UHGV virus genome: UHGV-0285350
DNA from: a virus
Length of the DNA: 44,975 nucleotides
Strand: one strand, 5' to 3'
Within the stretch, counting starts at the first letter, position 1, and each line of letters starts with the position of its first letter. Positions 6,140 through 31,708 of this stretch are shown piece by piece. The notes under the pieces were generated by a model. It was not told the origin of the DNA and made no database searches. It saw nothing but the letters and a program-made list of their open reading frames with translations. The position numbers were made by a program, and so were the translations under genes.

Positions 6140-6233
6140 AAGCATCCTCAAAGGTCGATCTGTCAGGTATCGAAAGGAAGATTTTCTGGAGATTGTGATT
6201 TTGGATGAAGGAGGGGGAATTCATAAAATGCAC

Positions 6234-6262: not shown

Positions 6263-6301
6263 TATGGCATTCGGTAATCATCACGGAGGATCAAATGACT
6301 A

Positions 6302-6604: not shown

Positions 6605-6674
6605 AACAGATACCCGGTTACGGACCGGGTTCTGACCAGAGTCCACTTAATACGCACGCTAGTAAGGGCAAAAA

Positions 6675-7013: not shown

Positions 7014-7069
7014 TATAGTAAAACACATACAAAAAGCCCACTTAGCAAGTGGGCTTTCCTTTGTAATTA

Positions 7070-7372
7070 ATGAACATTAAACCTATCCGTACAGAACAAG
7101 ATTATGAGGCCGCACTGCGTGCGGTCGAACCGATGTTCGATAACGAGGAGTACGAGAAAAAACATTACCCAATTGAGCCACCATCACCTATTGAGGCCAT
7201 TAAATTCCGTATGGAACAGCAAGGGCTGACCGTGAAGGATCTGGAACCGGCGATTGGTAAGTCAAATCGTGTTTACGAAGTGCTAAATGGGACACGAAAT
7301 TTGACGTTACCTATGATTCGCCGTTTACATTCCCAGTTTGGCATTCCTCTTGAAAGCTTGGTTGGTATTTGA
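7070..7372 (+). CDS. second HTH (XRE-type, C-terminal HTH) antitoxin-like regulator
   Basis: C-terminal LTVKDLEPAIGKSNRVYEVLNGTRNLTLPMIRRLHSQFGIPLESL resembles HigA-family antitoxins with C-terminal HTH; no cognate toxin directly upstream. Confidence 0.6.
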   Translation: MNIKPIRTEQDYEAALRAVEPMFDNEEYEKKHYPIEPPSPIEAIKFRMEQQGLTVKDLEPAIGKSNRVYEVLNGTRNLTLPMIRRLHSQFGIPLESLVGI

Positions 7373-7434
7373 GTTTGGCGGTCTGGATGACCGCTATTTT
7401 CATAAAATAGATATTAGAAATCACGGTAGTTTAT

Positions 7435-8163: not shown

Positions 8164-8196
8164 AAGCCTAGCCTAGGCAGCTAGGCTATGTGTGGT

Positions 8197-9390: not shown

Positions 9391-9712
9391 TTTCTATCTC
9401 CGGTTCCGCGCTCGCGTAATCACGGATCTTGTTCCTCAGCCATGCCACATCAGGAAGAGTTAACGTGGTCCCGGCGGGCATTTCTTCCATTTCTGACTCA
9501 TGGCCCACCAGCACCCGGAATACCCAGCGCAAATCTGCATTGCCATACGCCCTGTAGGCTGCAAGGTCTGAACGATATACTTCATCAATCTTTATCGTGT
9601 ACTGGAAATTATCAGAGTGATACTCCGATACCCGCTTAATCATTTCCTGGTGAAACAGCGCACGAAAAATATCGTCTTCAATGTACCTATCGTCGAGTCT
9701 GCTATAGCCCAT
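9383..9712 (-). CDS. hypothetical protein (upstream partner of SWIM protein, overlapping start/stop)
   Basis: 109-aa ORF whose stop overlaps the start of 8197..9390; no motif recognised. Confidence 0.5.
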   Translation of the reverse strand: MGYSRLDDRYIEDDIFRALFHQEMIKRVSEYHSDNFQYTIKIDEVYRSDLAAYRAYGNADLRWVFRVLVGHESEMEEMPAGTTLTLPDVAWLRNKIRDYASAEPEIENA

Positions 9713-9905
9713 AACAAAGCCTCTCAGTCATAACCTGGGGGAAACTGTATGCAGGGTGTGAAATGCGAGAAACAGACAGGCCACCAGTTCAGGGGGATGT
9801 GGTTCATAAATCCCCTCACTGGTGACAAGTGACTTTCATTAATCTTTATGCGGGGGCCAGCTTCATTTGCTGGCATTAGATTAAAAATTAAACGGAGTGA
9901 ATGAC

Positions 9906-10040
9906 ATGGATGTTATCTTCGAATTATTAATGCTAATTGATCTGTTTATGAACGCTTCATTGACCACTCAAATACTCGCGTCAATATTTTTGTTACTCTT
10001 CTACCTGGTATTGAGGGAGTTAACAAAGCTACTAATGTGA
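9906..10040 (+). CDS. possible small hydrophobic peptide (44 aa, one TM-like segment)
   Basis: ATG after GGAGTG; translation MDVIFELLMLIDLFMNASLTTQILASIFLLLFYLVLRELTKLLM*; AT-rich; below the track's 60-aa cutoff, coordinates from my own reading. Confidence 0.3.
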   Translation: MDVIFELLMLIDLFMNASLTTQILASIFLLLFYLVLRELTKLLM

Positions 10041-10694
10041 TCAAAGTATCACGGTATCTTCATCAACTTCTTTCCCAGCCAGTGACTTTGGCTGGGAGGT
10101 GCCTGCTTTAACTTTTTCATGCCCAATAATGGACAGGAACGAAGCGAGTATGCCTGTTTTTTGCTCTTTCTCGACTGTACCGGTCATCTGCTCTACATAA
10201 TCTGCACTGGCAACGTTGTGGTATACGGTCGCGTAGCAACACAGGATCATCAGAATATGCTCCGGCCTGATATCCTGCCAGTTCACCCTGTAGACTTCTT
10301 CTCCGTTACCGTTGTATTCGGTATCAACGATAGAGTCGGGGATTTCGAAAGCACCTTTGTTATTTTGCGGCAGGGATAATAGTTTCTGGAGTTTTAACTC
10401 TCTGTATCTTTCCATCCCAACGATGATTGCTGCTCTACCATCGGCATGACGGGTCTTGAGAGTCACCTGGCTTGCTCCGGTGCCAGCGGAGATCGTTGGC
10501 GTAATTTCGTCTACTAGAACCTTAAATTTGCTTTTCCGCAGGGCTGCTATAGCTGGAGGAATTTTTTGCTTTTGCTCCAATGCTGACGCGGGAAGGGGTT
10601 TTACTTCGTTAATAATGAGAGCACCGTCTTTCAGTATTGCAGTGAGCATTTGAGGCTTGCTGGTGGTCAGGCTGAATATTGCGATCTTTTCCAT
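10041..10694 (-). CDS. hypothetical protein
   Basis: Start placed at ATG (MEKIAIFSL...) preceded by GGAGGAAGG SD; track ORF extends to 10736. Confidence 0.55.
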   Translation of the reverse strand: MEKIAIFSLTTSKPQMLTAILKDGALIINEVKPLPASALEQKQKIPPAIAALRKSKFKVLVDEITPTISAGTGASQVTLKTRHADGRAAIIVGMERYRELKLQKLLSLPQNNKGAFEIPDSIVDTEYNGNGEEVYRVNWQDIRPEHILMILCCYATVYHNVASADYVEQMTGTVEKEQKTGILASFLSIIGHEKVKAGTSQPKSLAGKEVDEDTVIL

Positions 10695-10721
10695 TTTCCT
10701 TCCTCCACGGATGACGGATAC

Positions 10722-10745
10722 AAAAAAAGGCCGCACATGGCGGCC
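10722..10745 (-). terminator. intrinsic-terminator-like hairpin on minus strand (ggccgc-acatg-gcggcc followed by T7) just upstream of the 10041..10694 gene
   Basis: Stem-loop and adjacent A7 on + strand (T7 on -) read from sequence. Confidence 0.35.
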
Positions 10746-10962
10746 TGCTTTGGCGTTATGACTCCCTACCGCGCTTCGGCTGAAAGTTAATCGTCAAAAG
10801 AACCTTCAACGGGAGCCGTTAGCGCGATGGATTATGTGCAGTTTGTGATTTCCAAAATAGTGTCAACCACTTTTTGTGGATTTTATTTTTTGACCGAAAT
10901 TTGGCCTAAATCATGTTGATGTAGTTAATTGTTTTTATAACATAAAACTTCATTTTGTTTAC

Positions 10963-11586
10963 ATGAAGGATGGTGTAGTGAAGTTAAGGGTTTTAGGGGC
11001 CGCGCTCGCGGCTATGTTGGGATGCGTATCTGCTAATACTGCCAATGCAACTGCGTTACCTGCACAATTCAGGGCAGGGCAGCAGGTTATGAATAACGCT
11101 GGTGGGGATCATTCACAAGCGGCCATTATGGACTTTTGCAAGAGGGAGGGCATTCCATTACGGCCTGTTGGAACTCAGTTTATTGGTAAAACTGACTTTT
11201 GCGTTTTTGCATATACAGCATATCTGACGGGCAAAGCTATAACAAAAACAGGTTACTCAACCAAAGATACTCTTTCCAGATTAAGTCAGGGATGGCAGCA
11301 ATTCGAAGTGTATCGCCAGCAAGGATTAGGTGAGTTATTGCAACCACTTTTTATGCTTGCATTGGTGCCCGAGGGGCAGCAATTTTTGGTTAAAAAGGGA
11401 ATGCTTCGCCAAAGTGATATTGCCGGGTTCGATAGCATGATGGCTTATGAGCGCAAACTAACCGAGCAGCGAAATAAAAAACCATCTGCTTCATGTGTGC
11501 AAAGTAAAACAGCAGAATACAGTGCAGTAGCCGGGCCTTTAGCCAAACAAATGGCAGAGCAATGGTGTAAAAAATACGGGCAATAA
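10963..11586 (+). CDS. hypothetical secreted protein (N-terminal signal peptide)
   Basis: N-terminus KLRVLGAALAAMLGCVSANTANA is signal-peptide-like; true start may be GTG at about 10978. Confidence 0.55.
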   Translation: MKDGVVKLRVLGAALAAMLGCVSANTANATALPAQFRAGQQVMNNAGGDHSQAAIMDFCKREGIPLRPVGTQFIGKTDFCVFAYTAYLTGKAITKTGYSTKDTLSRLSQGWQQFEVYRQQGLGELLQPLFMLALVPEGQQFLVKKGMLRQSDIAGFDSMMAYERKLTEQRNKKPSASCVQSKTAEYSAVAGPLAKQMAEQWCKKYGQ

Positions 11587-11606
11587 GTTACGCAGCGGAG
11601 GCAGAA

Positions 11607-11999
11607 TTGAAAAGATTGGCTATTGCTTTACTGGCGTCTTTCCCTTTGATCGCGAGCGCCGGAAATTTACAAGTTAAGTGCGGTCGGTTTGATATAAAAA
11701 TCTATCCGGATGCCATATTTCTGAATGGGAATAAGGTTGATAACGCACACCGAAAAACTGAATCTGACGTAATGAGCTATGTGTTCCAGGAGTATGCGGA
11801 GATGGGGGGAACTTATACGCTGTACTCGCTGGATGTTCCTTCTCGCGGTGATATGACATTATCCCATCAATGGCAGAACGCCGATGGAGAAGCTCTGCGC
11901 GAGGTTAAAATAGAAAAATGTGGCACTTTCCATTCTTTTAAAGGGAAAGCGCCAAATGTTAAATCTGTGCTTGAAAAACAGCGCACAGGTGAGCTTTAA
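11607..11999 (+). CDS. hypothetical secreted/periplasmic protein (signal peptide)
   Basis: MKRLAIALLASFPLIASA signal peptide with AxA cleavage motif; no other motif recognised. Confidence 0.55.
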   Translation: MKRLAIALLASFPLIASAGNLQVKCGRFDIKIYPDAIFLNGNKVDNAHRKTESDVMSYVFQEYAEMGGTYTLYSLDVPSRGDMTLSHQWQNADGEALREVKIEKCGTFHSFKGKAPNVKSVLEKQRTGEL

Positions 12000-12307
12000 G
12001 CCCCTTTAATCACGGAGATGTCGTTCCCCGTACGATAACGACGGGGAACGGAATTATCCATCAGGTCACGAATTGCTCCCGCTTCACGTAGTTCCTCTGT
12101 TTCCCTGTATCTATTTGTCACCAGATCCAGGCTGGCAATGACTTTGTGCCGGTCATTCGGCATAGCCAATTTTTCTGCCATTATCATCAGCGACAAATCT
12201 TCATCCAGAAGAATTTGATACCAGTTTTTTGATAGTTCTACTTCCCTTATGAGACTGAAACGTCGCTGGATTGTTGCAGCAGAGTAAGTGAAATCTATTT
12301 TCTTCAT
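11996..12307 (-). CDS. hypothetical protein
   Basis: 103-aa ORF; stop overlaps the end of the upstream convergent gene. Confidence 0.45.
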   Translation of the reverse strand: MKKIDFTYSAATIQRRFSLIREVELSKNWYQILLDEDLSLMIMAEKLAMPNDRHKVIASLDLVTNRYRETEELREAGAIRDLMDNSVPRRYRTGNDISVIKGA

Positions 12308-12369
12308 CGTGCGGAGAATCCGGTTATTTAGTAGTTAAAGCCCCGACGACCCCGGGTAACCCTACACCT

Positions 12370-12543
12370 TCAGGCTTTATGCTTGGTTGATTTCTTCTTG
12401 GTTTGCTTGCAGGCGTAGGCCATTGCTTTAGCTTTCACTTCATCCAGTTTACCAGTAATCACTTCTTTTCCGAGAGTGACAAACCAGTCATAGCAACCGC
12501 CAGTAATGTTCTTGATTTGAAAGTTGAGGTAGCGAACAGTCAT
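12370..12543 (-). CDS. possible small basic protein (57 aa, Lys-rich C-terminus)
   Basis: ATG preceded by GGGGGTG SD; translation MTVRYLNFQIKNITGGCYDWFVTLGKEVITGKLDEVKAKAMAYACKQTKKKSTKHKA*; not in track (<60 aa). Confidence 0.35.
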   Translation of the reverse strand: MTVRYLNFQIKNITGGCYDWFVTLGKEVITGKLDEVKAKAMAYACKQTKKKSTKHKA

Positions 12544-12874
12544 TTTGACACCCCCGGCGCGAGTAAAGAATGCAGATTATCGCGTGAGTGGTGGACGACG
12601 AGTGATGGGAAAAGACTGTAGTTGTTCATAGTGTAGTGACTCCTTGCTTTCGGAGCCGCCATCGACTGTTCCACGGTCTGGTGGCGGCGCAATAAAGGCT
12701 GGAACACCGTGAGTCAACGGGGGCTTTTCAGCCACCTATATTGCACCGCCATTGGTATGGCGGCAGCAATCATACGAAAAACTAAATAGTTTGTCTCAAA
12801 AAGTTGACCGGTGTGCCAATCGGTAGTGAATGTACATCGGAGCATTTTTCAATTCAACTTAAAATGTTAGAAAA

Positions 12875-13453
12875 CTAATTTATCAATTCAATCGCCATCT
12901 GATACAACGTCATTTCATCGGCATTGTGCCGCATGAAATCTGCTTTTCCGCCTATTTTTCCATCAGCATGAACAGGGACCAGCCAGGGATATTGTTCTCG
13001 GACCTCGGCTGGCGCTGCGTACTGGTGGTGCCATTTACACAAAGGGAGGACATATTTATGCGCGTTCTCTGCCGTTCTCCCGAAGATATGGTGCAGGGAT
13101 ACCACTGGGCTATGTTGCCCGTGAATATGGCAGGCAATGCAGGGGAGAGTACCGATAGCGGTCTGTATCCGGCGTTCATCGGCTGTGAGTGATCTGCCCT
13201 TCAGGCCGCGTGACGTGCGTGTTTTTTTGGACGGAGTGGATACAGCTTTCTCTTTTCTCCGCTGGTCATATTGCTTTGCTTTTTCAATTCTCTTTTGCCG
13301 ATATTCAGGCGATGCGGCTTTTTCTCTCGCTCGTTGCTGCTGGCGTTGAGCTTGTTGAAGGCGCTTTGCCCTTTGTTCCTCTCGCCAGGCTGGGTCAGCC
13401 AATTTTTGCATGGCTTTTTGTCTCTGTTTCTCCCAATAGCTCTGTTTCTGCAT
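12875..13453 (-). CDS. Ref-like (phage P1 recombination enhancement function) HNH-type nuclease with basic low-complexity N-terminal region
   Basis: N-terminal about 90 aa Arg/Lys/Gln-rich; C-terminal LPCIACHIHGQHSPVVSLHHIFGRTAENAHKYVLPLCKWHHQ has Cys/His spacing of an HNH zinc-finger nuclease; architecture matches P1 Ref as I recall it. Confidence 0.55.
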   Translation of the reverse strand: MQKQSYWEKQRQKAMQKLADPAWREEQRAKRLQQAQRQQQRAREKAASPEYRQKRIEKAKQYDQRRKEKAVSTPSKKTRTSRGLKGRSLTADERRIQTAIGTLPCIACHIHGQHSPVVSLHHIFGRTAENAHKYVLPLCKWHHQYAAPAEVREQYPWLVPVHADGKIGGKADFMRHNADEMTLYQMAIELIN

Positions 13454-13484
13454 GATGGCTGCCTCTTACTTTTCAGCTATTTTT

Positions 13485-13535
13485 CTATGATTGATCAAAA
13501 TAGTTAGATATTCAAAATTGATTTTCTAACACAAA
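13485..13535. promoter_or_regulatory. divergent control region with repeated TTCTA/TTAGA half-sites including TTTTCTAACA
   Basis: ttttcta...tagttagata...attttctaacacaaaac read from sequence between the leftward Ref-like gene and the rightward early operon. Confidence 0.35.
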
Positions 13536-13725
13536 ACATTAATATCATTTCTGATAACTGTTTGGAGGACATGATGCTTATAGCTTTAAGTGCGATCCAC
13601 CAGCCATCTGTGAATGAGATTGGCCTGTTCTATGTGTTGTTTTTCGGGGCGTTGGCGCTACTTGAGCTTGGTATTGAGCTTTTCGCAGTGCTTATGTTTT
13701 GCGTCACGATTTTGGGGAAATTTTG

Positions 13726-14337
13726 ATGGTGAAACGTGTTTTGAAAATTTACATCGCGGGGCCGATGACTGGTTATCCAGATTACAACCGTGCGGCGTTT
13801 AATGCGAAAGCGAGCGAGTTGATGGCTGAAGGGCATATCGTTCTGAATCCAGCTGTGTTACCTGGTGGCCTTTGTCAGAGTGAATACATGGATATTTGCC
13901 TGGCAATGGTGCGTTCTGCTGATGCGATCTACTTGCTCAATCGATGGGAGGAATCGATTGGTGCTCGTGCAGAGCACGCGCTGGCTGAAAAGCTGGGGCT
14001 GACTGTAATTTATGAGTCACCAACCAACATTGAATGCCAGGTTGCTCCGCATATTTACCGGGAACTGGTCAATGCACTGCGTGATATCGCTGCTGTATAT
14101 CACGGCACAGAACAGCTTCGTGAGCGTTTAGCCCATACCATTTTCTATTACCTGTCTTTATCTCATGAGCACAAGCTCCGCCAGAAGGTAATGATCAAAT
14201 TTATCATGAGGTTATCGAAATCCCTGGCAAACGCCGATCCAAAGAATCCATTACCGAAAGAGGCAATGAATTACCTGAAATCCTGCAACGTTGTTTCTGA
14301 AGATGGCGTTCTTTTGGTTAGAAGGAGTTCTGCGTGA
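13726..14337 (+). CDS. DUF4406-like (nucleoside 2-deoxyribosyltransferase-like fold) protein with about 100-aa C-terminal extension
   Basis: KIYIAGPMTGYPDYNRAAFNAKASELMAEGHIVLNPA matches the YIAGPM(T/S)G signature; start at ATG 13726. Confidence 0.55.
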   Translation: MVKRVLKIYIAGPMTGYPDYNRAAFNAKASELMAEGHIVLNPAVLPGGLCQSEYMDICLAMVRSADAIYLLNRWEESIGARAEHALAEKLGLTVIYESPTNIECQVAPHIYRELVNALRDIAAVYHGTEQLRERLAHTIFYYLSLSHEHKLRQKVMIKFIMRLSKSLANADPKNPLPKEAMNYLKSCNVVSEDGVLLVRRSSA

Positions 14338-14366
14338 GCTGGCGGGGATGGGGAAGGGCAGAAATC

Positions 14367-14651
14367 ATGATACTCCGCCAGTGCGCCGGGACTATGACAG
14401 TCGAGAGTATTGGGAGGCTGATCGGGCGTACCGGTAGTGCTGTCAGAACCAAAGCGCGGCAACTGCGGATCTGCATGATTCTGAAAGGAGACTTTCACCC
14501 GTCAGCCAAATACCGGCAGGGCGATATAGAACTGGCACGGCAGCTTCATCGGTGTGGTGTTCCCCGCCGTGAGATCGCGGAAAAACTCGAAATGCCCCTG
14601 GGCATGATTAATCAGTACGTTTATTTCGAAAGGAGAGTGTATGAAGTCTGA
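14367..14651 (+). CDS. hypothetical small protein with two HTH-like segments (putative DNA-binding)
   Basis: Start placed at ATG after GGGAAGGG; track ORF starts at GTG 14334 overlapping the previous stop. Confidence 0.4.
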   Translation: MILRQCAGTMTVESIGRLIGRTGSAVRTKARQLRICMILKGDFHPSAKYRQGDIELARQLHRCGVPRREIAEKLEMPLGMINQYVYFERRVYEV

Positions 14652-15192
14652 AGGTTTAACGCCCGCACAACTGGCAGAGCGTAACGCTGAGTATGTAACG
14701 GAAATTTCCCGACTTGAGAAAGCGTGTGCTGCGCTGGCGGCGGAGAATGCTGGGCTGAAGTCTGAAGCTCCACTTGGTGCCATCGAGAATGGCAGAGCGT
14801 TTGCAGACCGTTTAGAGAATTACCAGTTCGAGTGTGAAGGCGGAAACCTAAACATGTGCAGTGATTGGCAGGAGTTTCGCCGTTGCTTCGAGTATTTATC
14901 TGAATGGGCAATGCATAGCCAGACAGAGCACCCAGCCACCGATGCTTTCCTGGCTGAAGTGAAGACTGAAGCACGCAAGGAGGGCGCTTACTTTGTGGCG
15001 AACAGAATGCTGGCTGCCTGGGAAGCTGGTTTTATTGATGATACTGCGAAGAACGCCGCGGATATTGCCCGGATGATTCTTACCTCTACTGAGTTTATGG
15101 CTAATGCGCCGGAAGGCGATTTTGACCGCTCATTCTCTGATGGCGTTCTCGAAGATATCGCCGCCCAGCTTGGAAAAGGAGGCAAACAGTGA
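14641..15192 (+). CDS. hypothetical protein, paralogue A (coiled-coil N-term; conserved C-terminal domain shared with 16304..17002)
   Basis: Shares ALEAKCAALAAENA(G/R)LK and PATDAFLAEV(K/R)(T/A)EAR(K/N)EG blocks and C-terminal GKGGKQ/RKGSSQ with the downstream paralogue. Confidence 0.6.
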   Translation: MKSEGLTPAQLAERNAEYVTEISRLEKACAALAAENAGLKSEAPLGAIENGRAFADRLENYQFECEGGNLNMCSDWQEFRRCFEYLSEWAMHSQTEHPATDAFLAEVKTEARKEGAYFVANRMLAAWEAGFIDDTAKNAADIARMILTSTEFMANAPEGDFDRSFSDGVLEDIAAQLGKGGKQ

Positions 15193-15377
15193 GTAACCGT
15201 TTTTACATGATGTGCTTGCGTGAAACTGTGGGTAATAACGCCTCATTCCATTGCCATAACGGCAATGGTTACAGTTCTTGGCGCGGCGGAAGCGTTTATG
15301 ATGCAGAAGCATGGCGAGATGGCTATGAAGCAGGGAAAACGCCTGTCGAAGTATATTGTGATGAGTGGGGTGGGTGA
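15189..15377 (+). CDS. small Cys/His-containing protein (62 aa)
   Basis: GTG start overlapping upstream stop (GTGA); stop overlaps methyltransferase ATG (TGAATG); residues C9, HCH, C57. Confidence 0.4.
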   Translation: MSNRFYMMCLRETVGNNASFHCHNGNGYSSWRGGSVYDAEAWRDGYEAGKTPVEVYCDEWGG

Positions 15378-16106
15378 ATGATTTGCCTTCACAACGCAGA
15401 CTGCTTTGACATCTTTCCGCAAATCGCCAGCAACTCCGTAGATCTTGTATGTGCCGATATTCCATATGGAACAACTCGGTGTCGCTGGGATTCTGTTCTC
15501 GACCTGCAGTTGATGTGGAAGCAGATTTACCGTATTTCCAAACCGAACGCTGCAATTGTTCTGTTTTCCGCTCAGCCTTTTACCAGCGTGCTGGTCAACA
15601 GCAATCTTCGTGACTGGAAAACAGAATGGATTTGGGAAAAGCCACACGCGACAGGATTTTTGAACGCAAAAAAACAACCTTTAAGAGCGCATGAAAATAT
15701 TGAAGTTTTTTACAGAAAGCAACCGACATACAACCCACAGATGACGTATGGGCACGCCAGAAAAACCTCAACAAGAGGTAGGCTGAATACTGATGTATAT
15801 GGCGATGCGCTGAAAAAGGTCGTTTACGATTCAACAAGTCGCTATCCGAGAGACGTGCAGAAATTCTCCAGCGACAAGCAAAAGCAGGCACTTCATTCAA
15901 CACAAAAGCCACTGGCTCTGGTGAGATATCTGATTGAAACATATAGCAATATTGGCGACACAGTGTTGGATTTCACTATGGGTAGCGGAACTACTGGCGT
16001 TGCGTGCCAACAATCAGGACGCCGATTTACAGGAATAGAAAAAGATCCAGAAATTTTTCGTATCGCATTAGAGCGTATGGGAATTAAACAGGAGCATGCA
16101 GCATGA
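15378..16106 (+). CDS. DNA methyltransferase, N6-adenine/N4-cytosine beta class
   Basis: Motifs DIPY (catalytic DPPY variant), HSTQKP, and FTMGSGTTGVA (SAM-binding FxGSGTT) in beta-class order. Confidence 0.85.
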   Translation: MICLHNADCFDIFPQIASNSVDLVCADIPYGTTRCRWDSVLDLQLMWKQIYRISKPNAAIVLFSAQPFTSVLVNSNLRDWKTEWIWEKPHATGFLNAKKQPLRAHENIEVFYRKQPTYNPQMTYGHARKTSTRGRLNTDVYGDALKKVVYDSTSRYPRDVQKFSSDKQKQALHSTQKPLALVRYLIETYSNIGDTVLDFTMGSGTTGVACQQSGRRFTGIEKDPEIFRIALERMGIKQEHAA

Positions 16107-16124
16107 TTTTTGTGGAGGCAACCA

Positions 16125-16307
16125 GTGAGCGAAATTAACTATCAAGAACTGCGCGAGGCGGCGGAACAGGCAACGCAAGATGAATGGGTAGCATATATTT
16201 TGCCGGTCATAACGGCATTTATCCTGCGCGCACGTCTGAGGGTAGGCATTGCGGATACTTTATTGACTGGCCTGGCGTCTGTCAGGGGCGGGAGAGCATC
16301 AGCATGA
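16125..16307 (+). CDS. possible small protein (60 aa)
   Basis: GTG 6 nt after GGAGG; stop overlaps start of next gene (ATGA); track lists a longer in-frame ORF from 16110. Confidence 0.35.
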   Translation: MSEINYQELREAAEQATQDEWVAYILPVITAFILRARLRVGIADTLLTGLASVRGGRASA

Positions 16308-17002
16308 GCATCAGAACCTACGCAGTGAATTGCAATGACGCATGGCTAAACACCGAAGGTGATGACATCTCCGGCTCATACGTTAAGTACAAAGACCATC
16401 AGGAAGTGGTTGCCGCTCTTGAGGCCAAGTGCGCGGCGCTGGCAGCGGAGAATGCAAGACTGAAGGCCGGGGCTATGTATTTCTCATATGGCTCTGAATT
16501 TAGTTTCGAGTGTCACAAAACTGCTGAGGAGGCTATCGCTGCTGCTGAGGCTGCAATTGACGACTATAGAGGCGATGCTTGCGATGGATGGAGCGAAGAG
16601 GTCGAAAGCATTTGCTGGGGGGTAATTATTCAGCAGGCAACCAAGGTCGGTGAACGCAAGAAGAGGAAATGCGACAGAGTATCACCATGGATTGAAAGAG
16701 TTTGTGATTATGAGCTTCGACCTAATGTCGAAACCCCAGCCACCGATGCTTTCCTTGCTGAAGTACGTGCTGAAGCACGCAACGAGGGGATTAACTATAC
16801 CGCCAGCCGTCTTGCTGCTGCGTTCAATCACGGATTTATCAATAAGTCTTTGCGTGAAGTTTTCGACGTTACACGCATGATTTTGTCAGCGAAAGAAGAG
16901 TTGGCTAATGAAGCGCATCCGATTGATGGCCTGTCTGGTGAATATGCGGAGAAATCCCTTGAAGAATGGGCGGAACAGATTCGCAAAGGAAGCAGCCAGT
17001 GA
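16304..17002 (+). CDS. hypothetical protein, paralogue B (with Cys-containing insertion)
   Basis: Same conserved blocks as 14641..15192 plus an about 60-aa insertion (CHKTAEEA...CDGWSEEVESICWG...KCDRVSPWIERVCD). Confidence 0.6.
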   Translation: MSIRTYAVNCNDAWLNTEGDDISGSYVKYKDHQEVVAALEAKCAALAAENARLKAGAMYFSYGSEFSFECHKTAEEAIAAAEAAIDDYRGDACDGWSEEVESICWGVIIQQATKVGERKKRKCDRVSPWIERVCDYELRPNVETPATDAFLAEVRAEARNEGINYTASRLAAAFNHGFINKSLREVFDVTRMILSAKEELANEAHPIDGLSGEYAEKSLEEWAEQIRKGSSQ

Positions 17003-17274
17003 ATATCGACACGACAATAACGATCGATACGCTCCTAAATACCGGTCTGGCACTTCTCGGTTGGCTTTACATCATGTCCCGTACCTGGCGATGGCTGGGT
17101 TCCATTTTCCTAAAAGAGTGGAAAAAACGGCGCAAACAGGAACTACGCCAGAAGGCATTAGAAGCGTTCTATGACGCATTTGAACTTAGCCGCATTGAAC
17201 CAGGCACAACAGCCAGAATAGCGACAAAAGGCGACCTGATGATAGTGATGTTCAGACAGGAGAAAACCAAATGA
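16999..17274 (+). CDS. small membrane protein (1 TM)
   Basis: GTGA overlap with upstream stop; hydrophobic LLNTGLALLGWLYIMS followed by basic stretch. Confidence 0.4.
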   Translation: MNIDTTITIDTLLNTGLALLGWLYIMSRTWRWLGSIFLKEWKKRRKQELRQKALEAFYDAFELSRIEPGTTARIATKGDLMIVMFRQEKTK

Positions 17275-17495
17275 CAGAACAGACGATGACAAATCGCGAA
17301 CTTGTTGATGCCGCGATTGAACTTGCTGGCGATTTTTATTCCATGATGGGGTACACGCATCGCCCAGGCTTCAAATATTGGGAGTCTCCGCACCCGCAAG
17401 AGCAACGGGTATTTCAAATGGCCTGCCGCGCTTTTGAAGTTATTCGCGGTTCTGATGTGATGGACGCGGTTGCTGATTTGGAGGATGAAGAGTGA
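17271..17495 (+). CDS. hypothetical protein
   Basis: 74-aa ORF translationally coupled to neighbours. Confidence 0.45.
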   Translation: MTEQTMTNRELVDAAIELAGDFYSMMGYTHRPGFKYWESPHPQEQRVFQMACRAFEVIRGSDVMDAVADLEDEE

Positions 17496-17803
17496 ACACA
17501 ATTAAAGAAATGCCGGTAGAACGTGATGAATATGGCTGCTGGACACATCCGGAGTATGAAAAGTTTTGCGCAGGTCGTGAATATATTTCTACTGAGGAAT
17601 TTGACGCCTGGATGAAGGAAAATAATCTTCAGTGGACTATTCGCAGTATGGATGAAGATGATTTTGATCTGGACGCAGCTGGTCCCGATATTGCCGCCTG
17701 GGAACCGGAGCGACCAGAGGGTGAAGGCTGGTTTGTTGGCTCTATTCATGACACTGAAGATGGTCCGGTTTGTATCTGGCTGCGTGAGAAGGTTGCCGCA
17801 TGA
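17492..17803 (+). CDS. hypothetical acidic protein
   Basis: 103-aa ORF translationally coupled to neighbours. Confidence 0.45.
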
Positions 17804-18492
17804 CCCAGGCTCTGCATGAAGTGAATTTATATAGCCGTATTGATGGTTCTGGCTATAGAAACATATGGGTTGTTGGTGATCTGCATGGTTGCTACACCAG
17901 ACTGATGTCCGAACTCCATCGTGTGGATTTTGACCCGGCGCAGGATTTACTGATATCGGTTGGCGACCTTATCGATCGCGGTACTGAAAATGTCGAATGT
18001 CTGGAACTATTGCAGATGCCCTGGTTCAGGGCAGTAATGGGGAACCATGAGCGGTTGATGCTTGATGCGTTAAGTCCTGATGGCAACGTGAATAACTGGC
18101 TAATGAATGGCGGACAATGGTTCTTCATGCTGGACACTGATCAGGAAATATTAGCCAAGGCGCTGGTGGAGCTGGTAAAGCGTCTGCCATATATCATTGA
18201 GTTGAACGCCGGGCATGAAACTATCGTTATAGCCCATGCCGACTATCCAGGTGGAGAGTACCAGTTCGGTAAGGATGTGTCGCTTTTTGATGTTGTCTGG
18301 TCGCGCAGTCGCGTCGGTGATTCGATAGATGGCATTGGTGGAGAAATCACAGGCGCAGATCGCTTTATCTTTGGGCACACACCGGTACGAAGACCAAAAG
18401 CATACTGGAATCAGCACTACATAGACACGGGCGCGGTTTTTTGCGGAAATCTGACGCTAATGCAGGTGAAGGGAGGGCAGCTTAAAGTCTGA
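17800..18492 (+). CDS. serine/threonine protein phosphatase (lambda-phosphatase-like metallophosphoesterase)
   Basis: Metallophosphatase motifs GDLHG, GDLIDRG, GNHE in canonical order. Confidence 0.85.
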
Positions 18493-18518
18493 TCAAATCA
18501 TTTACGCACTCAAATCAC

Positions 18519-18546
18519 GTTAGAACATTGATTTTAGTTTTCTAAC
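18519..18546. promoter_or_regulatory. inverted repeat GTTAGAA-N14-TTCTAAC upstream of the 18590 operon; candidate operator
   Basis: Read from sequence; same motif family as 2897-2940 and 13522-13531. Confidence 0.35.
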
Positions 18547-18589
18547 ATATTATTTTACCGATCGGAACAAAACAGAGTCGGTATGCATT

Positions 18590-19585
18590 ATGAGTGCAAT
18601 AATCACCCCATATGTCGTAAATGAAACTGGTGTGGCTGTCTTTCCTGTAGATAAGCCCACCAGCAATTACATCGGCGCAGGACGCCGTTTTCTTATATCC
18701 CCATTGCCGCGTGAACAGGCTGAAAACACCCCTGATGGTGTCGTTGACCTGAATTATTCACTGGTTGCCAACCAGTCACTGGCACCCTTTTTTCAAAGTG
18801 AGCGTGTATTTAACGCGTTAGGTGGTGAGGATTCTCTCGTTCACTGGGTTAGCACCAACATTCACGATTGCCAGGCGCACGATAAGCGCGATTGCAGCCA
18901 CCAGCTAACCACTCATTTCTATAACGGCTCTGCCGTTCGCCTGTGCTGGAAGCATGATGCGGAATACATGATGAAGGGGTACAGCAAGCTGGACGACCAG
19001 TTATCCCTGAATCGTGCCAACTGGGTTATGAACTGGGCTGCGAGCGAGTTAAAACTACCGCCAGAACGCGATCTGAGCATGGTTGAACTCACTTTTTGGG
19101 CCATTCGCCGGAATCTGAAAGATGAGCTGCCAGATGAAGCCGGTCGCATTGCATTTTGTCAGCCAAAAACTGAAATCCCTACCGGTACGCTGAAAGAATC
19201 AGATATCACCTGGGAGCACAGTACCCGCGAGCTGGTGGACATAACCGCAGAGCAGATCGTCAACCTGTCTGTAGATGAGGATTCCGGCCTGCTTTATATG
19301 CGCCGACCAAAAGCGGTCCTCGGTAAAAGCCCGGCTTATCTCCGGTTTGTGGTTTCTCGTCCGTGCATCGGATGCGGTGGCAAAGTTAACCACCCGTTCA
19401 TGTACCGCGCCCGCTCGTTAAACGAACACGACCGCTGGGCTGTTCCTCTTTGCGATGACTGCGCCAGAAGCGCAGAAAACGATGTCCGGGCATGGGAAAA
19501 AGCACATGGCATACGCCTTTACGTAGCCGCTAACCAGCTTTTTGACTTCGCCATCGAGCGCGGAGTGATCACTTTCAATAACTGA
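18590..19585 (+). CDS. hypothetical protein with C-terminal HNH-like zinc-ribbon motif
   Basis: C-terminus RPCIGCGGKVNHPF...SLNEHDRWAVPLCDDCA fits CxxC-x5-H-x10-N-x2-H-x7-CxxC (HNH core); large N-terminal domain unassigned. Confidence 0.5.
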   Translation: MSAIITPYVVNETGVAVFPVDKPTSNYIGAGRRFLISPLPREQAENTPDGVVDLNYSLVANQSLAPFFQSERVFNALGGEDSLVHWVSTNIHDCQAHDKRDCSHQLTTHFYNGSAVRLCWKHDAEYMMKGYSKLDDQLSLNRANWVMNWAASELKLPPERDLSMVELTFWAIRRNLKDELPDEAGRIAFCQPKTEIPTGTLKESDITWEHSTRELVDITAEQIVNLSVDEDSGLLYMRRPKAVLGKSPAYLRFVVSRPCIGCGGKVNHPFMYRARSLNEHDRWAVPLCDDCARSAENDVRAWEKAHGIRLYVAANQLFDFAIERGVITFNN

Positions 19586-19589
19586 TGAG

Positions 19590-20282
19590 GTGGATCAAAA
19601 AATGAAAGAACGCGGGATGATTTTTAACGATGAGATGGTCAGGGCCATCCTCGAAGGAAGGAAGACGCAGACTCGCCGACCTGTAAAAAATGTCAGGGCC
19701 GATAACTGCCTGGTTATCCGTAAACCGACAAAGAAACGCAATGGTGTCTATACCCACGTTATGGATGCACCTGAACATGGTTTATGCCCGTTCGGTAACG
19801 TTGGTGATCGCATATGGGTCCGTGAGGCGTGGGCGATATTAGGCAATGAGGATGGTTGCAGTGTGGACTGGAACGACAACCTTTGTCGTGGCGATGAGAA
19901 GAACGCAGCAAGGATTTATCGGGCCAGTTGTGAGCAAAAGCCGGGTGATTACGGCTTGTGGTCGATACCCGATGATGCCGACTGGAAACCTCACACTGTG
20001 AATGAAAAATTTGATGGCGGGTGGTGTCCATCAATTCACATGCCGCGCTGGGCATCGCGCATTTTGCTGGAAATTACCGACGTGCGTGTGGAACGGCTGC
20101 GTGATATGAGCGAGGCAGATGCTAAAGCAGAAGGCGCATCTCCGGCGATGTACAAAATTACGCCGCCGGAAGCTGTTTATCGCGTTGGTTTTGGTGATAT
20201 CTGGCGCAGTATTTACGGGCAGGATAACTGGCTATCTAACCCGTGGGTATGGGTAATCGAGTTTAAGCGCGTTCAGGAATAA
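19590..20282 (+). CDS. ASCH/PUA-like domain protein (tentative) with Cys-containing insertion
   Basis: N-terminal MIFNDEMVRAILEGRKTQTRR resembles the ASCH GxKxxExR motif; C-terminal ...ILLEITDVRVERLRDMSEADAKAEG resembles the conserved ASCH C-terminal strand; assignment by motif recall only. Confidence 0.45.
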   Translation: MDQKMKERGMIFNDEMVRAILEGRKTQTRRPVKNVRADNCLVIRKPTKKRNGVYTHVMDAPEHGLCPFGNVGDRIWVREAWAILGNEDGCSVDWNDNLCRGDEKNAARIYRASCEQKPGDYGLWSIPDDADWKPHTVNEKFDGGWCPSIHMPRWASRILLEITDVRVERLRDMSEADAKAEGASPAMYKITPPEAVYRVGFGDIWRSIYGQDNWLSNPWVWVIEFKRVQE

Positions 20283-20285
20283 ACC

Positions 20286-21164
20286 GTGAGTATGCATCAA
20301 GTTGTCAGCTTTTCAGGTGGACGAACATCGGCTTATCTCGTTCATCTGATGGAAGCACAGCGAAAAGCTGGCGCTAGCGTCCATTTCATTTTTATGGATA
20401 CCGGCTGTGAACATCCTCTGACGTATCGCTTTATTCGTGAGGTTGTGAAGTTCTGGAACGTACCGCTAACGGTGTTGCAGGTCGATATAAATCCAGAACT
20501 TGGGCAGCCAAATGGTTATACGGAATGGGAACCAAAGGATATTCAGACGCGAATGCCGGTGCTTAAACCGTTTATGGACATGGTTAAAAAGTACGGTACG
20601 CCATACATCGGCGGCGCGTTCTGCACTGACAGATTAAAACTCACCCCCTTCACAAAATACTGCGATGACCATTTCGGACGAGGGAATTACATCACATGGC
20701 TGGGTATTCGTGCAGACGAACCTCGTAGGCTGAAACCAAAATCGGGCGTCCGGTATCTTGCCGAGCTATCTGATTTTGATAAGTCGGATGTTATCCGGTG
20801 GTGGCATAAACAACCTTTTGATTTGCAAATCCCGGAGCATCTCGGGAACTGTATTTTCTGCATCAAAAAGTCCACGCAAAAACTGGGGCTTGCATGTAAA
20901 GACGAACCTGGTCTGATGCGGGTTTTTAATGAACTGGTTACAGGCAAACACGTCAGGGATGGTCATCGCAGAACAGGTAAAGACGTTATGTACCGTGGTC
21001 ACCTGACGCTTGACGGGATTGCCAGAATGTATGCCGACAGCGACTACAGAAATTTGTATCAGGCGATGGTGCAGGCCAAGCGGTTTGATACTGGTTCGTG
21101 TTCCGAATCATGTGAAATCTGGGGTGACCAATTGGAGTTGAAATTCGAAGAGGTAGTGGTATGA
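20286..21164 (+). CDS. PAPS-reductase-family PP-loop protein with C-terminal Cys cluster
   Basis: VVSFSGGRTSAYL is the PP-loop (SGGxxS) of the PAPS reductase / adenine-nucleotide alpha-hydrolase family; cysteines GNCIFCIKK and CSESCEIW suggest a metal or Fe-S site. Confidence 0.75.
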   Translation: MSMHQVVSFSGGRTSAYLVHLMEAQRKAGASVHFIFMDTGCEHPLTYRFIREVVKFWNVPLTVLQVDINPELGQPNGYTEWEPKDIQTRMPVLKPFMDMVKKYGTPYIGGAFCTDRLKLTPFTKYCDDHFGRGNYITWLGIRADEPRRLKPKSGVRYLAELSDFDKSDVIRWWHKQPFDLQIPEHLGNCIFCIKKSTQKLGLACKDEPGLMRVFNELVTGKHVRDGHRRTGKDVMYRGHLTLDGIARMYADSDYRNLYQAMVQAKRFDTGSCSESCEIWGDQLELKFEEVVV

Positions 21165-21640
21165 CAAACAAAATTGACTATCAAAAACTTCGTGAAATCG
21201 CTGAAAAAACAAAAATTGCTGGTGAAGCACCTGTAATGCCTTTCGATCAGCGAATTAATGCGCTTAACGATTTTATGAAGCACTTTTCGCCAGATATCGC
21301 GTTGGCATTGTTGGATGAAGTTAAACGCCTAGAAGACACAAATATTGATTCTATATGCCGAATTGCAGAGATGGAGACGCGGGAAATAAAACCAGCAAAA
21401 GGCGAAGTTCTTGTCGTTGTATCTGGTTTTACTGGTTGCGGAAAAAGCGCCATTGCCGGGGAAATAGAAATCGCGATGAAGGCTATTGGTGTACCGGTTC
21501 AGTGGACTAATGGCGATGCAGAAAAGCGCATGACAGGAGCTGACTGGCTGACAGCAATTGAGATGTACAAACCAACAGTGCGCATCGTTGAAGTTAATGT
21601 GCCACGCGTCCCTGGCATTCGCATCAAAGGAGGTGAGTAA
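21161..21640 (+). CDS. hypothetical small P-loop protein
   Basis: VVVSGFTGCGKSAIA matches Walker A GxxxxGK[ST]; only 159 aa. Confidence 0.45.
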   Translation: MTNKIDYQKLREIAEKTKIAGEAPVMPFDQRINALNDFMKHFSPDIALALLDEVKRLEDTNIDSICRIAEMETREIKPAKGEVLVVVSGFTGCGKSAIAGEIEIAMKAIGVPVQWTNGDAEKRMTGADWLTAIEMYKPTVRIVEVNVPRVPGIRIKGGE

Positions 21641-21816
21641 TGCGTGTGGCATGTATCGGCTTGTTACCGTACCCGACTCGTTTTTGGGCTTCTGCGCTAA
21701 TTGCAAAGCCACATGTACTGATGGCTGACAACATCATCCCGGCACCAAATCGCCGCCATACCGGTATTGCAGCGGCACGACGTGCAGCAAAGAAACGCAG
21801 GAGAGCAAAGCGATGA
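21640..21816 (+). CDS. possible small Arg/Lys-rich protein (58 aa)
   Basis: ATG overlaps upstream stop (TAATG) and is preceded by AAAGGAGGTGA SD; stop overlaps next ATG; not in track (<60 aa). Confidence 0.45.
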   Translation: MRVACIGLLPYPTRFWASALIAKPHVLMADNIIPAPNRRHTGIAAARRAAKKRRRAKR

Positions 21817-21995
21817 AAAACCGTAAGGCAAAAATTCTGTTAGCTCGCAGAAACGGTGTTGGGGTCTGGCGATGGTTGAGGATTAGTAACAGACGAGTGA
21901 GGTTGACGGGGTGTTGCGGGGTGATGTTGCACAGCTGTTGCAAAAAGCCCAGCGCGGCGCAAAACCGCTGGAAGAATCACACTAACGCAAAGTAA
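21813..21995 (+). CDS. possible small Cys-rich basic protein (60 aa)
   Basis: ATGA overlap with upstream ORF; CCGVMLHSCC cluster. Confidence 0.35.
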   Translation: MKNRKAKILLARRNGVGVWRWLRISNRRVRLTGCCGVMLHSCCKKPSAAQNRWKNHTNAK

Positions 21996-22012: not shown

Positions 22013-22038
22013 ACAGACCAAAACATATGTTTTGGTCT
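22013..22038. promoter_or_regulatory. perfect 26-bp palindrome CAGACCAAAACAT|ATGTTTTGGTCTG, followed by a second CCAAAA-N6-TTTTGG repeat
   Basis: Read from sequence; exact dyad symmetry around AT|AT; sits between the early operon and the gemA region. Confidence 0.45.
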
Positions 22039-22062
22039 GCCAAAAGTAGTGTTTTGGTCATT

Positions 22063-22341
22063 ATGAAGATTGAACAAGTCGGAATGGCAGCTTTCAGGCA
22101 ACAGGCTGAAAGCGGTGGCGTGGATGAGTTCGTCGTGCAGCGGTTCGGTGGTGTGTATCACCTCTTCGCTGTGAATCGCCGCGCCGGGGTGTCCTATTTT
22201 CTACAGGAACGCCGTGGCGATTACAAGACGTGGCTGTCTCTTGACCGTGCCGCCGCGTTCCTGTCGGGGATTGGTGTTTCACGTTTTACCGTGCGTTTTG
22301 AGGATAACAAACATGCTGAAAAAGATGATCGGGGCCATTAA
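22063..22341 (+). CDS. hypothetical protein
   Basis: ORF in track (22027..22341); start ambiguous (ATG 22027 inside palindrome, or ATG 22063); no clear SD for either. Confidence 0.35.
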   Translation: MKIEQVGMAAFRQQAESGGVDEFVVQRFGGVYHLFAVNRRAGVSYFLQERRGDYKTWLSLDRAAAFLSGIGVSRFTVRFEDNKHAEKDDRGH

Positions 22342-22708
22342 AGCCGGTCAGGCATATCTGGGGTGGGATGATGCTCTTTATCGCCAGACACTGGTCCGCC
22401 TGACAGGTAAAACCAGCACCACACGCTGCAATCTCGATGAACTGCGCATCATCCGGGAATACATGCACGAACAGGGATTCCCGCGCAAGGCACCCGCTGG
22501 TAAAGGTCGCCGCCCTCGTGTTGCAATGAGCAGAAAATCAGTATTATCCAAAATTGAAGCGTTGCTGGCTGATGCCGGTCGTTCCTGGGCGTATGCAGAA
22601 GGACTGGCATCTCACATGTATAAGCAACATGTGATCGAATGGCTGACGGATGATCAACTGTTTGGGGTGATGGTGGCGCTGGTTAAAGATTCAAGGAGAC
22701 GTAAATGA
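22313..22708 (+). CDS. gemA: GemA-like protein (Mu gp16 / DUF1018 family)
   Basis: MLKKMIGAIKAGQAYLGWDDALYRQTLVRLTGKTSTTRCNLDELRIIREYMHEQGF matches the Mu GemA/gp16 pattern; ATG after GAGGA. Confidence 0.7.
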   Translation: MLKKMIGAIKAGQAYLGWDDALYRQTLVRLTGKTSTTRCNLDELRIIREYMHEQGFPRKAPAGKGRRPRVAMSRKSVLSKIEALLADAGRSWAYAEGLASHMYKQHVIEWLTDDQLFGVMVALVKDSRRRK

Positions 22709-23043
22709 AAAAACTGTTATTACTTATTCTGGCTTTATGTTTTACAGGGATATCCCATGCTTCTGATTCAGAGGAAGATTTGATCAAAAAAACATTACAG
22801 GGCGATTATCAGGCACAACGTAATCTGGCTTATTCATACATGAATGGCTGGGATGATATTTCAAAGGATACCATTAGAGGATGTGCTCTCAGGAAGGTTA
22901 TTCTCTTAACACAAGCCCAAGCTGACATTGGCGATTATGGAAATGAAGCCATAGATTGTCGAAAAGTGCATCCAACAGATAACCAGAAAGTATGGGAGTA
23001 TGTCAGAGGATACCTGGTGTTAATAAACGAGAATAAAAAATAA
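22705..23043 (+). CDS. hypothetical secreted protein (signal peptide), AT-rich moron-like gene
   Basis: MKKLLLLILALCFTGISHA signal peptide; local AT-richness; followed by strong terminator. Confidence 0.55.
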   Translation: MKKLLLLILALCFTGISHASDSEEDLIKKTLQGDYQAQRNLAYSYMNGWDDISKDTIRGCALRKVILLTQAQADIGDYGNEAIDCRKVHPTDNQKVWEYVRGYLVLINENKK

Positions 23044-23055
23044 TATGAACAAAAA

Positions 23056-23080
23056 CCTTCGCAAACGCGGAGGTTTTTTA
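23056..23080 (+). terminator. rho-independent terminator (ccttcgc-aaac-gcggagg then tttttt)
   Basis: Hairpin and U-run read from sequence immediately after stop of 22705..23043. Confidence 0.6.
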
Positions 23081-23084: not shown

Positions 23085-23113
23085 CTGTACAGGCGATCAT
23101 GTATGGCTATAAT
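23085..23113 (+). promoter_or_regulatory. candidate promoter for Mor/C-family gene (-10 TATAAT at 23108-23113; weak -35 CTGTAC)
   Basis: Consensus -10 hexamer about 30 nt upstream of the 23143 ATG; -35 is poor, compatible with an activator-dependent promoter. Confidence 0.35.
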
Positions 23114-23142: not shown

Positions 23143-23610
23143 ATGCAGACCTTCAGTGAAACAGATCTTCGCGATGCGCAGGCACTGCTGCCCGACTCCG
23201 TGCAGCAACTGATTAGCGTGATTGGCTTCCCCGCTCTGACCCGGTTGATTCGTTCTTTTGGTGGTGTGACGTTAAGTGGTAAAACCGGCGCACACGCCGA
23301 ACGCACCGGCGGTGTCCATGCCCTGTTACATGACGTGCTGACCGAAGACGAAATCAACAAACTGATCCGCTTTCTTGGCGGCGCACCGTTTTACATTCCC
23401 CGTTGCGATCATGCTTTACGTGCCCTGCGTAACACCCGTTTTATGGCTGATTTACAGCGGCATCTCAGGGACGGATTCTCACATCGGCAGGCGCTGGCAC
23501 AGCTTTGTCCCCGTTACGGGATTTCAGACCGGTACGCATGGCAACTGATACACCGACGACAAAAACAGACTTCGCTGAAAAGCCCCACCCAGGTGGGGCT
23601 TTTTGATTAA
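23143..23610 (+). CDS. Mor/C-family transcriptional activator of phage middle/late genes
   Basis: C-terminal HTH ...LAQLCPRYGISDRYAWQLIHRRQK typical of the Mu Mor/C family; cannot tell whether this is the Mor or the C equivalent. Confidence 0.7.
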   Translation: MQTFSETDLRDAQALLPDSVQQLISVIGFPALTRLIRSFGGVTLSGKTGAHAERTGGVHALLHDVLTEDEINKLIRFLGGAPFYIPRCDHALRALRNTRFMADLQRHLRDGFSHRQALAQLCPRYGISDRYAWQLIHRRQKQTSLKSPTQVGLFD

Positions 23611-23635: not shown

Positions 23636-23914
23636 ATGACCAACTATACGGCACTTGGCGAGTATACAGCCTACTCAGAGCAGGCCAGGGATGCTGCCGG
23701 ACGCCGCTTCGCTTATATGAAAAATCTGGCCAGCCAGCTAAACCGAATGGCTGAACAACCGGATATGGTTGTTCAGGAAGAAGCGTTGCAGTGTGCCATT
23801 GCTGACATCATCGCCAGCGAAAACGAGATGCGCGCAGCGATGGAAAAGGCGAACGCCTCTGCTCCGCTTTGTAATAAACCTCTTATTACGCCGGATTCTC
23901 TTTCCCGCTTCTGA
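23636..23914 (+). CDS. hypothetical protein
   Basis: ORF in track (23603..23914); start placed at ATG (MTNYTALGEY...). Confidence 0.4.
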   Translation: MTNYTALGEYTAYSEQARDAAGRRFAYMKNLASQLNRMAEQPDMVVQEEALQCAIADIIASENEMRAAMEKANASAPLCNKPLITPDSLSRF

Positions 23915-31510: not shown

Positions 31511-31708
31511 ATGGCCAGAAACGCGCTGTAATCGTCTGTGACAACATAAACGCCTCACGGATGAGGTATTAGCACCGCACCCCGTAAATGTCGTCAGAAT
31601 CGTTTTTAAAAGGGTTTTAAAAACGGTTTTATTTCCCATTTTATCCTTTCGCGTTATGGCAGGGTGCTGAACACCCTCCACAGTACCCCGTGTTCCCCTT
31701 CCGTCATC

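Follow-up and report, generated by a model that had tools for sequence, protein, structure and literature searches.

Conserved twin palindromes form the leader of a small unnamed gene preceding gemA in a group of Mu-like prophages of Escherichia coli

The window, a stretch of viral DNA of 44,975 nucleotides (UHGV virus genome UHGV-0285350) that was analysed at its full length, contains two adjoining palindromes inside a long operon encoded on a single strand, with no terminator ahead of them (Table 1). The sequence of this region reads ...AATAACAGACCAAAACATATGTTTTGGTCTGCCAAAAGTAGTGTTTTGGTCATTATGAAG. Dyad I had been reported in the first-pass annotation as an exact dyad beginning at 22013. The 13+13 palindrome is indeed exact but begins one base later, the repeat finder giving arms of 13 nt each at 22014-22026 and 22027-22039 that are 100% complementary and have no spacer. 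It is the longest perfect palindrome in the window; arms of 13 nt appeared in 0 of 200 dinucleotide-preserving shuffles of the window (maximum 12, reached once) and in 0 of 1000 shuffles of the 150 nt upstream of orf92. Shorter palindromes with 10-11-nt arms lie inside open reading frames elsewhere, CTGAACAACC-GGATAT-GGTTGTTCAG at 23751-23776 and CGTTTTTAAAA-GGG-TTTTAAAAACG at 31601-31625. The neighbouring CCAAAA-N6-TTTTGG repeat, also described in the first reading, was confirmed as dyad II, which directly adjoins dyad I. Together the two units form a tandem direct repeat with a 22-nt period (80% identity over 20 nt by the repeat finder), and the four arms are one motif in alternation, ACCAAA(A) in arms 1 and 3 and (U)UUUGGU in arms 2 and 4. 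Start-to-start spacing of the half-sites is 12, 10 and 12 bp, giving a 22-bp period equivalent to two turns. All three copies of the exact 9-mer GACCAAAAC in the window are within the element, and CCAAA-N6-12-TTTGG matches only the two dyads. Dyad I ends 23 nt upstream of the orf92 start codon, and dyad II, with arm 4, ends 5 nt upstream of it.

Table 1. Features of the palindrome region and of the genes that follow it (window coordinates)
Feature	Position	Strand	Description
A/T-rich tract ATAATAACCAATAA	22000..22013	+	partly common to all upstream contexts
Dyad I	22014..22039	.	perfect 26-bp palindrome CAGACCAAAACAT|ATGTTTTGGTCTG, arms 1 and 2
Nested hairpin (predicted)	22016..22059	+	arm 1:4 11 bp, 3x3 internal loop, arm 2:3 6 bp, UCUG loop
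Dyad II	22040..22057	.	CCAAAA-GTAGTG-TTTTGG, arms 3 and 4, second 22-nt unit
Weak SD-like GGUCAUU	22056..22065	+	abuts orf92 AUG; GG within arm 4
orf92	22063..22341	+	92-aa protein, phrog_7844, no Pfam family, weak ParC-like signal
gemA	22313..22708	+	PF06252; 29-nt overlap with orf92 end
Lipoprotein-like accessory gene	22705..23043	+	phrog_5882; missing from some relatives, e.g. L031
Intrinsic terminator	23054..23079	+	AACCTTCGC-AAAC-GCGGAGGTT then T run; closes early operon
Promoter-like TGTACA-16-TATAAT	23086..23113	+	ahead of mor; same site in L031
mor	23143..23610	+	PF08765
Bidirectional terminator-like palindrome	23578-23603		12+12, GC-rich, AAAAGCCCCACC|CAGGTGGGGCTTTT; overlaps mor end

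The element lies at the junction between the mosaic accessory segment of the early operon and the conserved gemA/mor segment, as had been stated at the outset. In the block of GemA and Mor envisaged there, mor is a separate unit behind a terminator and a promoter-like site. The complete relative L031 has a strong equivalent of this terminator at 21231-21251, and its whole terminator and promoter-like layout before mor spans 21231-21290; weak leader-like Rfam hits fall on the terminator in the window. Since the promoter-like site follows the terminator directly, the early operon would end after gemA and the lipoprotein-like gene, with mor transcribed separately. By this layout the element appears to head the last two or three genes of the early operon.

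The element's own gene, orf92, had gone unrecognised in the first-pass annotation, in which the palindrome was said to overlap the first ATG of an ORF at 22027. That ATG is in the palindrome, but it is not the start of the gene. The PGAP start in close relatives is the ATG equivalent to 22063 and yields the 92-aa protein, the N-terminal extension from 22027 is not conserved, and the distant homologues, all of which start MK(I/N/T)E, have a stop codon in the upstream frame. The ORF from 22027 results from the way ORFs are listed and is an artefact. Likewise rejected was a 13-codon upstream ORF with an ATGA overlap at its end, which is found only in haplotypes with A14>G and has no Shine-Dalgarno sequence; two haplotypes lack an ATG altogether. 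The only Shine-Dalgarno-like bases before the orf92 AUG are the GGU of arm 4, the likeness of GGUCAUU being weak when judged against the 3' end of 16S rRNA.

The orf92 product is predicted by AlphaFold to form a beta-alpha-beta3-alpha-beta domain (pLDDT 80.6) whose closest fold is ribosomal protein eL38. Fold matches in BFVD were to uncharacterised proteins only, no DNA-binding fold was recognisable in the predicted structure, and searches against PDB sequences and Pfam returned no match and no family, respectively. The profile NF041544 (ParC family partition-associated protein) scored 17.2 bits (E 0.003) against orf92 and hit 10 of 14 family members, with a best E of 3e-5, far below the curated cut-off of 95 bits. 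Membership of NF041544 was rejected on that cut-off, and the ParC-like signal is at most a lead to a possible distant relationship. The family is very small, with 11 representatives in a profile search of 1.84 billion proteins; a search of genome contigs found one locus, and single-protein scans for P0014-P0016 found none. A literature search on gemA promoters and on ParC found nothing usable.

The window itself is of mixed origin, with a left part (1-21980) and a right part (21360-44975). Positions 6000-21980 resemble P1-like phage-plasmids of about 90 kb at 94-97% identity, the sequence from about 21360 rightward matches Mu-like prophages, and the two share only a module of ~620 bp (Ead/Ea22 plus two small ORFs). 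Given these P1-like and Mu-like halves, and since no complete E. coli genome spanning both sides was found, the window either arose by natural recombination or is an assembly chimera, with the shared module as the joint. The element's native context is a transposable Mu-like prophage such as L031, in which a single strand carries, in order, a repressor, a ner-like gene, a transposase, an ATPase, ~20 small early genes, orf92, gemA, mor and Mu-type late genes. The 58-nt element is present in 58 of 5,426 complete E. coli genomes and in ~30 IMG/VR and metagenome contigs, and neither its DNA nor the orf92 protein was found among 50,697 cultured phage records. An orf92 (96% identity) next to gemA also occurs on a 200-kb plasmid of Escherichia albertii (NZ_CP043265.1, 161565-161840), which suggests a Mu-like prophage inserted in the plasmid.

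Throughout this collection the element directly precedes orf92, and at least four unrelated modules begin 15-20 nt upstream of it. The constant linkage on one side and the unrelated modules on the other indicate that the element belongs to the orf92 module and that mosaic junctions lie just 5' of it. The junctions fall 5' of the A/T tract (consensus about ATAATAATCAAnnG), the same 10-14 nt preceding the palindrome in otherwise unrelated upstream contexts. A dispersed repeat of the REP/BIME or MITE kind was rejected because the element has a median of one place per genome, always next to orf92; extra places were indistinguishable from self-matches of the palindrome on the other strand or from second prophages. 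In a group of E. coli Mu-like prophages, the palindrome pair makes up the leader of this small unnamed gene preceding gemA.

Within the E. coli lineage, 14 distinct haplotypes were compared. All frequent changes are confined to the middle of dyad I (positions 11-16) and to the six-base centre of dyad II, where GTAGTG, GTGATG, GCAATG, GCGATG, GTAATG and ATGATG were found; the arms of dyad II are invariant except for one C-to-T change. The rare arm changes C1>T, A4>G, C11>T and C27>T each leave a G.U pair in the + strand RNA. Strain E2348/69 combines C11>A with G16>T, a compensatory change of C11-G16 to A-U, and G16>T alone or G16>A alone breaks the innermost pair of dyad I. Among 279 coding positions, relatives L020 and L070 have 47 and 50 differences from the window, but 0 changes are seen in the 32 arm positions paired in the two-hairpin fold, where ~5 would be expected at the coding rate (p ~0.003 by simple arithmetic). 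The first-pass annotation had let its case depend on the palindrome recurring in related phages, and it does recur, with arms invariant and centres free. The palindrome is real, as is its weaker twin, and both are protected in evolution.

The + strand RNA of the element is predicted to be highly structured. A two-hairpin fold, pairing arms 1:2 and 3:4, gave -25 kcal/mol in a 101-nt context (z -3.8), and a nested 44-nt hairpin was about as stable at -21.1 kcal/mol (z -5.6); no shuffle was equally stable in either predicted-fold test. Both folds remain ~98% paired over the haplotypes, which show a single compensatory pair and, at four positions, five pair variants of the G.U type, and shuffle controls reach the same covariation scores. 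An RNA structure is compatible with the data, though not proven by them, and the haplotypes do not discriminate between the modelled folds. Rfam contains no family for the element (best match RF04343, 19.8 bits against a gathering threshold of 55.8, E 1.9). In either fold arm 4, with its Shine-Dalgarno-like GGU, would be base-paired. The explanation that we tentatively place first, as possible though short of probable, is that the element is an intercistronic RNA structure that masks the weak ribosome-binding region of orf92 and derives from a translational-coupling junction. Against masking stand the covariation scores, which do not exceed those of shuffles, and the two G16 changes that break a dyad I pair.

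The same predicted RNA could instead be a processing or stability hairpin of the RNase III type, which we think improbable. Cleavage of the nested 44-nt hairpin would separate the gemA-proximal mRNA from the variable accessory segment and set the half-lives of both. Variation is greatest at precisely the six positions of its internal loop (14-16 and 33-35), positions 37-38 are invariant though they are loop bases in the two-hairpin fold, and its shape, with ~two helical turns and an internal loop, is like that of T7 R1.1-type sites. The paired change in E2348/69, however, breaks the nested 11:38 pair and supports the 11:16 pair of the two-hairpin fold, L020 loses two basal pairs of the nested fold, and the distant relatives have no stable helix.

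Transcription termination was considered on both strands. An intrinsic + strand terminator was rejected: the stem is stable (11-13 bp) but lacks a U tract, dyad I being followed by CCAAAAG... and dyad II by UCAUUAUGAAG, and the + strand terminator scan made no call. On the minus strand, an intrinsic terminator could stop antisense transcription into the early operon, with the U-rich complement of the conserved ATAATAATCAA tract as its tail, and the scan called three of four contexts terminator-like. We nevertheless regard this reading as very improbable, as the tail is interrupted and begins 3-4 nt after the stem, context C was not called, dyad II is left unexplained, and neither a minus-strand gene nor a conserved minus-strand promoter lies to the right.

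Homologues of orf92 with 63-77% amino acid identity are located upstream of gemA in Mu-like phages of Leminorella and Intestinirhabdus and in metagenomes. Their leaders contain two 22-nt units of the form ACCAAA(A)-N8/9-(T/A)TGG. In six distant relatives compared with the E. coli core, the 22-nt period is kept and the arms match at 19-23 of 24 positions, as against 66-70% in the coding sequence and 3-6 of 20 (random level) in the spacers, with no compensatory arm changes seen. From these alignments the arms appear to be the best-conserved bases of the region, conserved as sequence. The distant leaders fold no better than shuffles (z +0.3 to -1.5) and only 3-4 of 6 positions of hairpin II are paired, which also speaks against masking. 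Fixed arms with randomised spacers fit a sequence-specific binder better than a purely structural RNA; an RNA reading would absorb the arm conservation only if a chain of complementarity anchored on the ribosome-binding region locks the arms.

A binder of this kind could act on DNA, and a tandem operator is a rival that we consider somewhat unlikely while giving it serious weight. Four half-sites would bind two dimers of a sequence-specific protein, which could be phage-encoded and is possibly the orf92 product; the result would be repression of an internal promoter or a block to read-through into orf92-gemA. Besides the contrast between arms and spacers without compensatory change, use of the motif four times with a two-turn period argues for an operator; conserved half-sites, diverged spacers and fixed spacing mark the element, as judged from sequence, as a candidate site. 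In L028 the element follows a terminator-like hairpin, and its unit 1 is overlapped by a promoter-like TTAACC-16-TATATT. However, four distant Mu-like relatives have no significant dyad, and no promoter is conserved across the E. coli contexts. A sigma-70 promoter at a fixed place by the dyad was not found across four upstream contexts: the promoter scan gave 9/12 hits at chance frequency and at differing distances in contexts A, B and L020 and none in context C, and the first base of the hexamer at -12..-7 is never T.

Specific regulators of the phage and host were also compared with the motif. It is not a prophage repressor operator, those of L031 being of the TTTAAACA type, nor a transposase end-binding site, since the left end of L031 carries TCTGGAC-type repeats. 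A Mor-binding site was rejected because the motif is missing from every late-promoter region. Its absence there and from the immunity region also counts against an operator; nor is it enriched elsewhere in the prophage. None of the host transcription-factor sites compared (FadR, PdhR, NrdR, MntR, AllR, marbox, Fis and IHF) appears to fit.

Outside the Mu-like prophages, an exact IMG/VR scan for CCAAAA-N6-TTTTGG-N4-CCAAAA returned orf92 loci and five others, of which three were single matches consistent with chance and two were full double dyads with a 22-bp period. One of the two, at 5942-5990 of the lambdoid E. coli prophage L036, lies upstream of an AbrB-like antitoxin/Doc toxin pair. A single unit is present at 2498-2520 of its close relative L062, and the unit in both, ACCAAAA-N6-TTTTGGT, is located after two terminators. 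The one unit of L062 against the two of L036 indicates that the L036 array arose by a 22-bp tandem duplication. Homology to Stx phages stops ~15 nt before the dyad unit. The other locus, at 6260-6350 of L040, has an array of four or more CCAAAAC-N4-GTTTTGG units repeating every 22 bp; this array is in an 800-nt non-coding, repeat-rich region of an A/T-rich phage contig. The near-identical 22-bp double dyad in an unrelated lambdoid prophage and the four-unit array in L040 both favour a DNA operator.

Plasmid homologues of orf92 extend the comparison further. A Yersinia plasmid homologue with 38% amino acid identity has TCCAAA-ATA-TTTGGA 23 nt before its start codon, a position within the last part of the preceding helix-turn-helix gene, and one variant changes C to T and leaves a U.G pair. 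The 3-nt spacer of this dyad, in place of the 6-8 nt elsewhere, argues against an operator, as a rigid dimer would not tolerate the difference. On the Yersinia plasmids the gene for the helix-turn-helix protein heads a small operon in which the homologue comes second, and a conserved 9+9 palindrome, TATATGAAC-N4-GTTCATATA (L073 2180-2236; also in L076 and L077), overlaps a promoter-like TTGTAT...TATATT. Strong palindromes unrelated in sequence to the element are found at the plasmid operon starts of L073 (9-nt arms, p ~0.004), L075 (9 nt, p ~0.007) and L074 (8 nt, p ~0.03). That plasmid homologues heading their own operons are preceded by strong palindromes of different sequence (L073, L074, L075) is a further point for an operator.

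In three of the distant relatives the ancestry of the element may be read from its position. The units of L021, L022 and L026 are the closing codons of an upstream ORF of 124 aa that is rich in Cys (...NQINTFGEPK*). Its stop codon lies between arms 3 and 4, 12-16 nt ahead of the orf92 AUG, and a GGA Shine-Dalgarno sequence is found between that stop and the AUG. Read in the same frame, the E. coli element encodes DQNICFGLPK..., and stop codons close the frame a few codons upstream. The peptide match to the L021 C-terminus is consistent with the element being a functionless relic of the 3' end of the ancestral upstream gene, carried along next to the orf92 start. A quasi-palindrome would then have been perfected by intrastrand template switching, and the junction position would be where recombinants stay viable. 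The duplication of such units seen in L036 relative to L062 and the loss of the dyads in several distant relatives also favour a relic. We hold this to be improbable given the absence of any change among the paired arm positions of L020 and L070 and the conservation of arms across genera with randomised spacers.

On the two functions offered for the palindrome in the first-pass annotation, a high-affinity protein-binding site or a processing signal, the results point both ways. Arm conservation, at the sequence level, favours specific recognition and with it the protein-binding option, and position, the missing promoter and the G.U-tolerant changes favour a role at the RNA level. Most likely the element controls orf92 expression, either through RNA or through DNA. 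We favour masking of the ribosome-binding region by reason of the proximity to the start codon, the lack of a shared promoter, the stop/start-junction ancestry and the tolerance for G.U changes. Three further observations support masking: the very stable predicted RNA (z -3.8 to -5.6), the Yersinia hairpin UCCAAA-AUA-UUUGGA, which also stands 23 nt before a start codon, and a GC-rich hairpin ~20 nt before the gemA start in Mu.

According to the masking explanation, a structure in the leader of the sense RNA would occlude the orf92 ribosome-binding region and so limit or condition translation of the last early genes, orf92 itself and, through the 29-nt overlap, gemA. The ancestral layout would have been one of translational coupling, in which ribosomes finishing the upstream gene opened the next start site. 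Recombination may then have exchanged the upstream gene in the E. coli lineage, with closure of the frame and a change of the imperfect repeats to near-perfect ones. We infer folding of the RNA in the cell, the lowering of initiation, and its relief by upstream translation or another factor.

The element has parallels in several known systems. Like the intercistronic hairpins that mask ribosome-binding sites in MS2 (coat-replicase) and Mu (the com-mom translation-inhibition stem), it has a stable stem beside a start codon, and as in the coupling of those systems the upstream ORF of the relatives stops within the structure, 12-16 nt before the AUG. Unlike them, the E. coli element has no translated upstream ORF running into it and consists of four arms with two folds, and it has no known activator comparable to Com. 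With RNase III hairpins such as T7 R1.1 and the lambda N leader it shares an intergenic position in an early operon, a helix of ~20 bp with an internal loop, and loop bases that vary freely; it differs in its A-U-rich stems and in an equally stable two-hairpin fold. Use of RNase III processing sites is not known from Mu-like phages. Two consecutive related dyads with a two-turn period are also a feature of Arc/Mnt, toxin-antitoxin and type Ib partition operators, and in a further likeness the family of the adjoining small gene is weakly related to plasmid 'ParC partition-associated' proteins. In contrast to such operators, no promoter was found, the neighbouring protein lacks a recognisable DNA-binding fold, and half-site spacing differs in the Yersinia homologue. 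A parallel in position is found in Mu itself, where the hairpin GGCGGTG-TTGCAG-CACCGCC (Mu 8193-8212, L069 1694-1713) stands ~20 nt before the gemA ATG and follows an untranslated gap of ~275 nt in the early operon, which holds only the oppositely oriented hypothetical gene gp15. The Mu hairpin is nevertheless single, GC-rich and unrelated in sequence, Mu has no orf92 homologue, and mor is behind its own terminator and promoter-like site here but not in Mu.

A more speculative reading, which we would call a long shot, is that the orf92 family comprises new small autoregulators that recognise a CCAAA/UUUGG stem in their own mRNA leader. It derives from the motif recurring at one distance from the start codon, 23 nt upstream, in phage and plasmid homologues with no more than 38% identity between them. 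On this view the four arms would make up a translational operator able to switch between two folds.

Taken together, we conclude that the palindrome pair is a previously undescribed, selected cis element of a familiar general kind. Its position bears on genes of some consequence: the Mu-type lytic programme is timed by gemA and mor, of whose control almost nothing is known outside phage Mu. A compact, strongly conserved cis element and a previously unnoticed gene are now defined, and in this prophage group the early operon would end after gemA. If the binder is not the orf92 product, the element would be an ordinary leader hairpin; if it is, a function would be gained for a protein family that currently has none.
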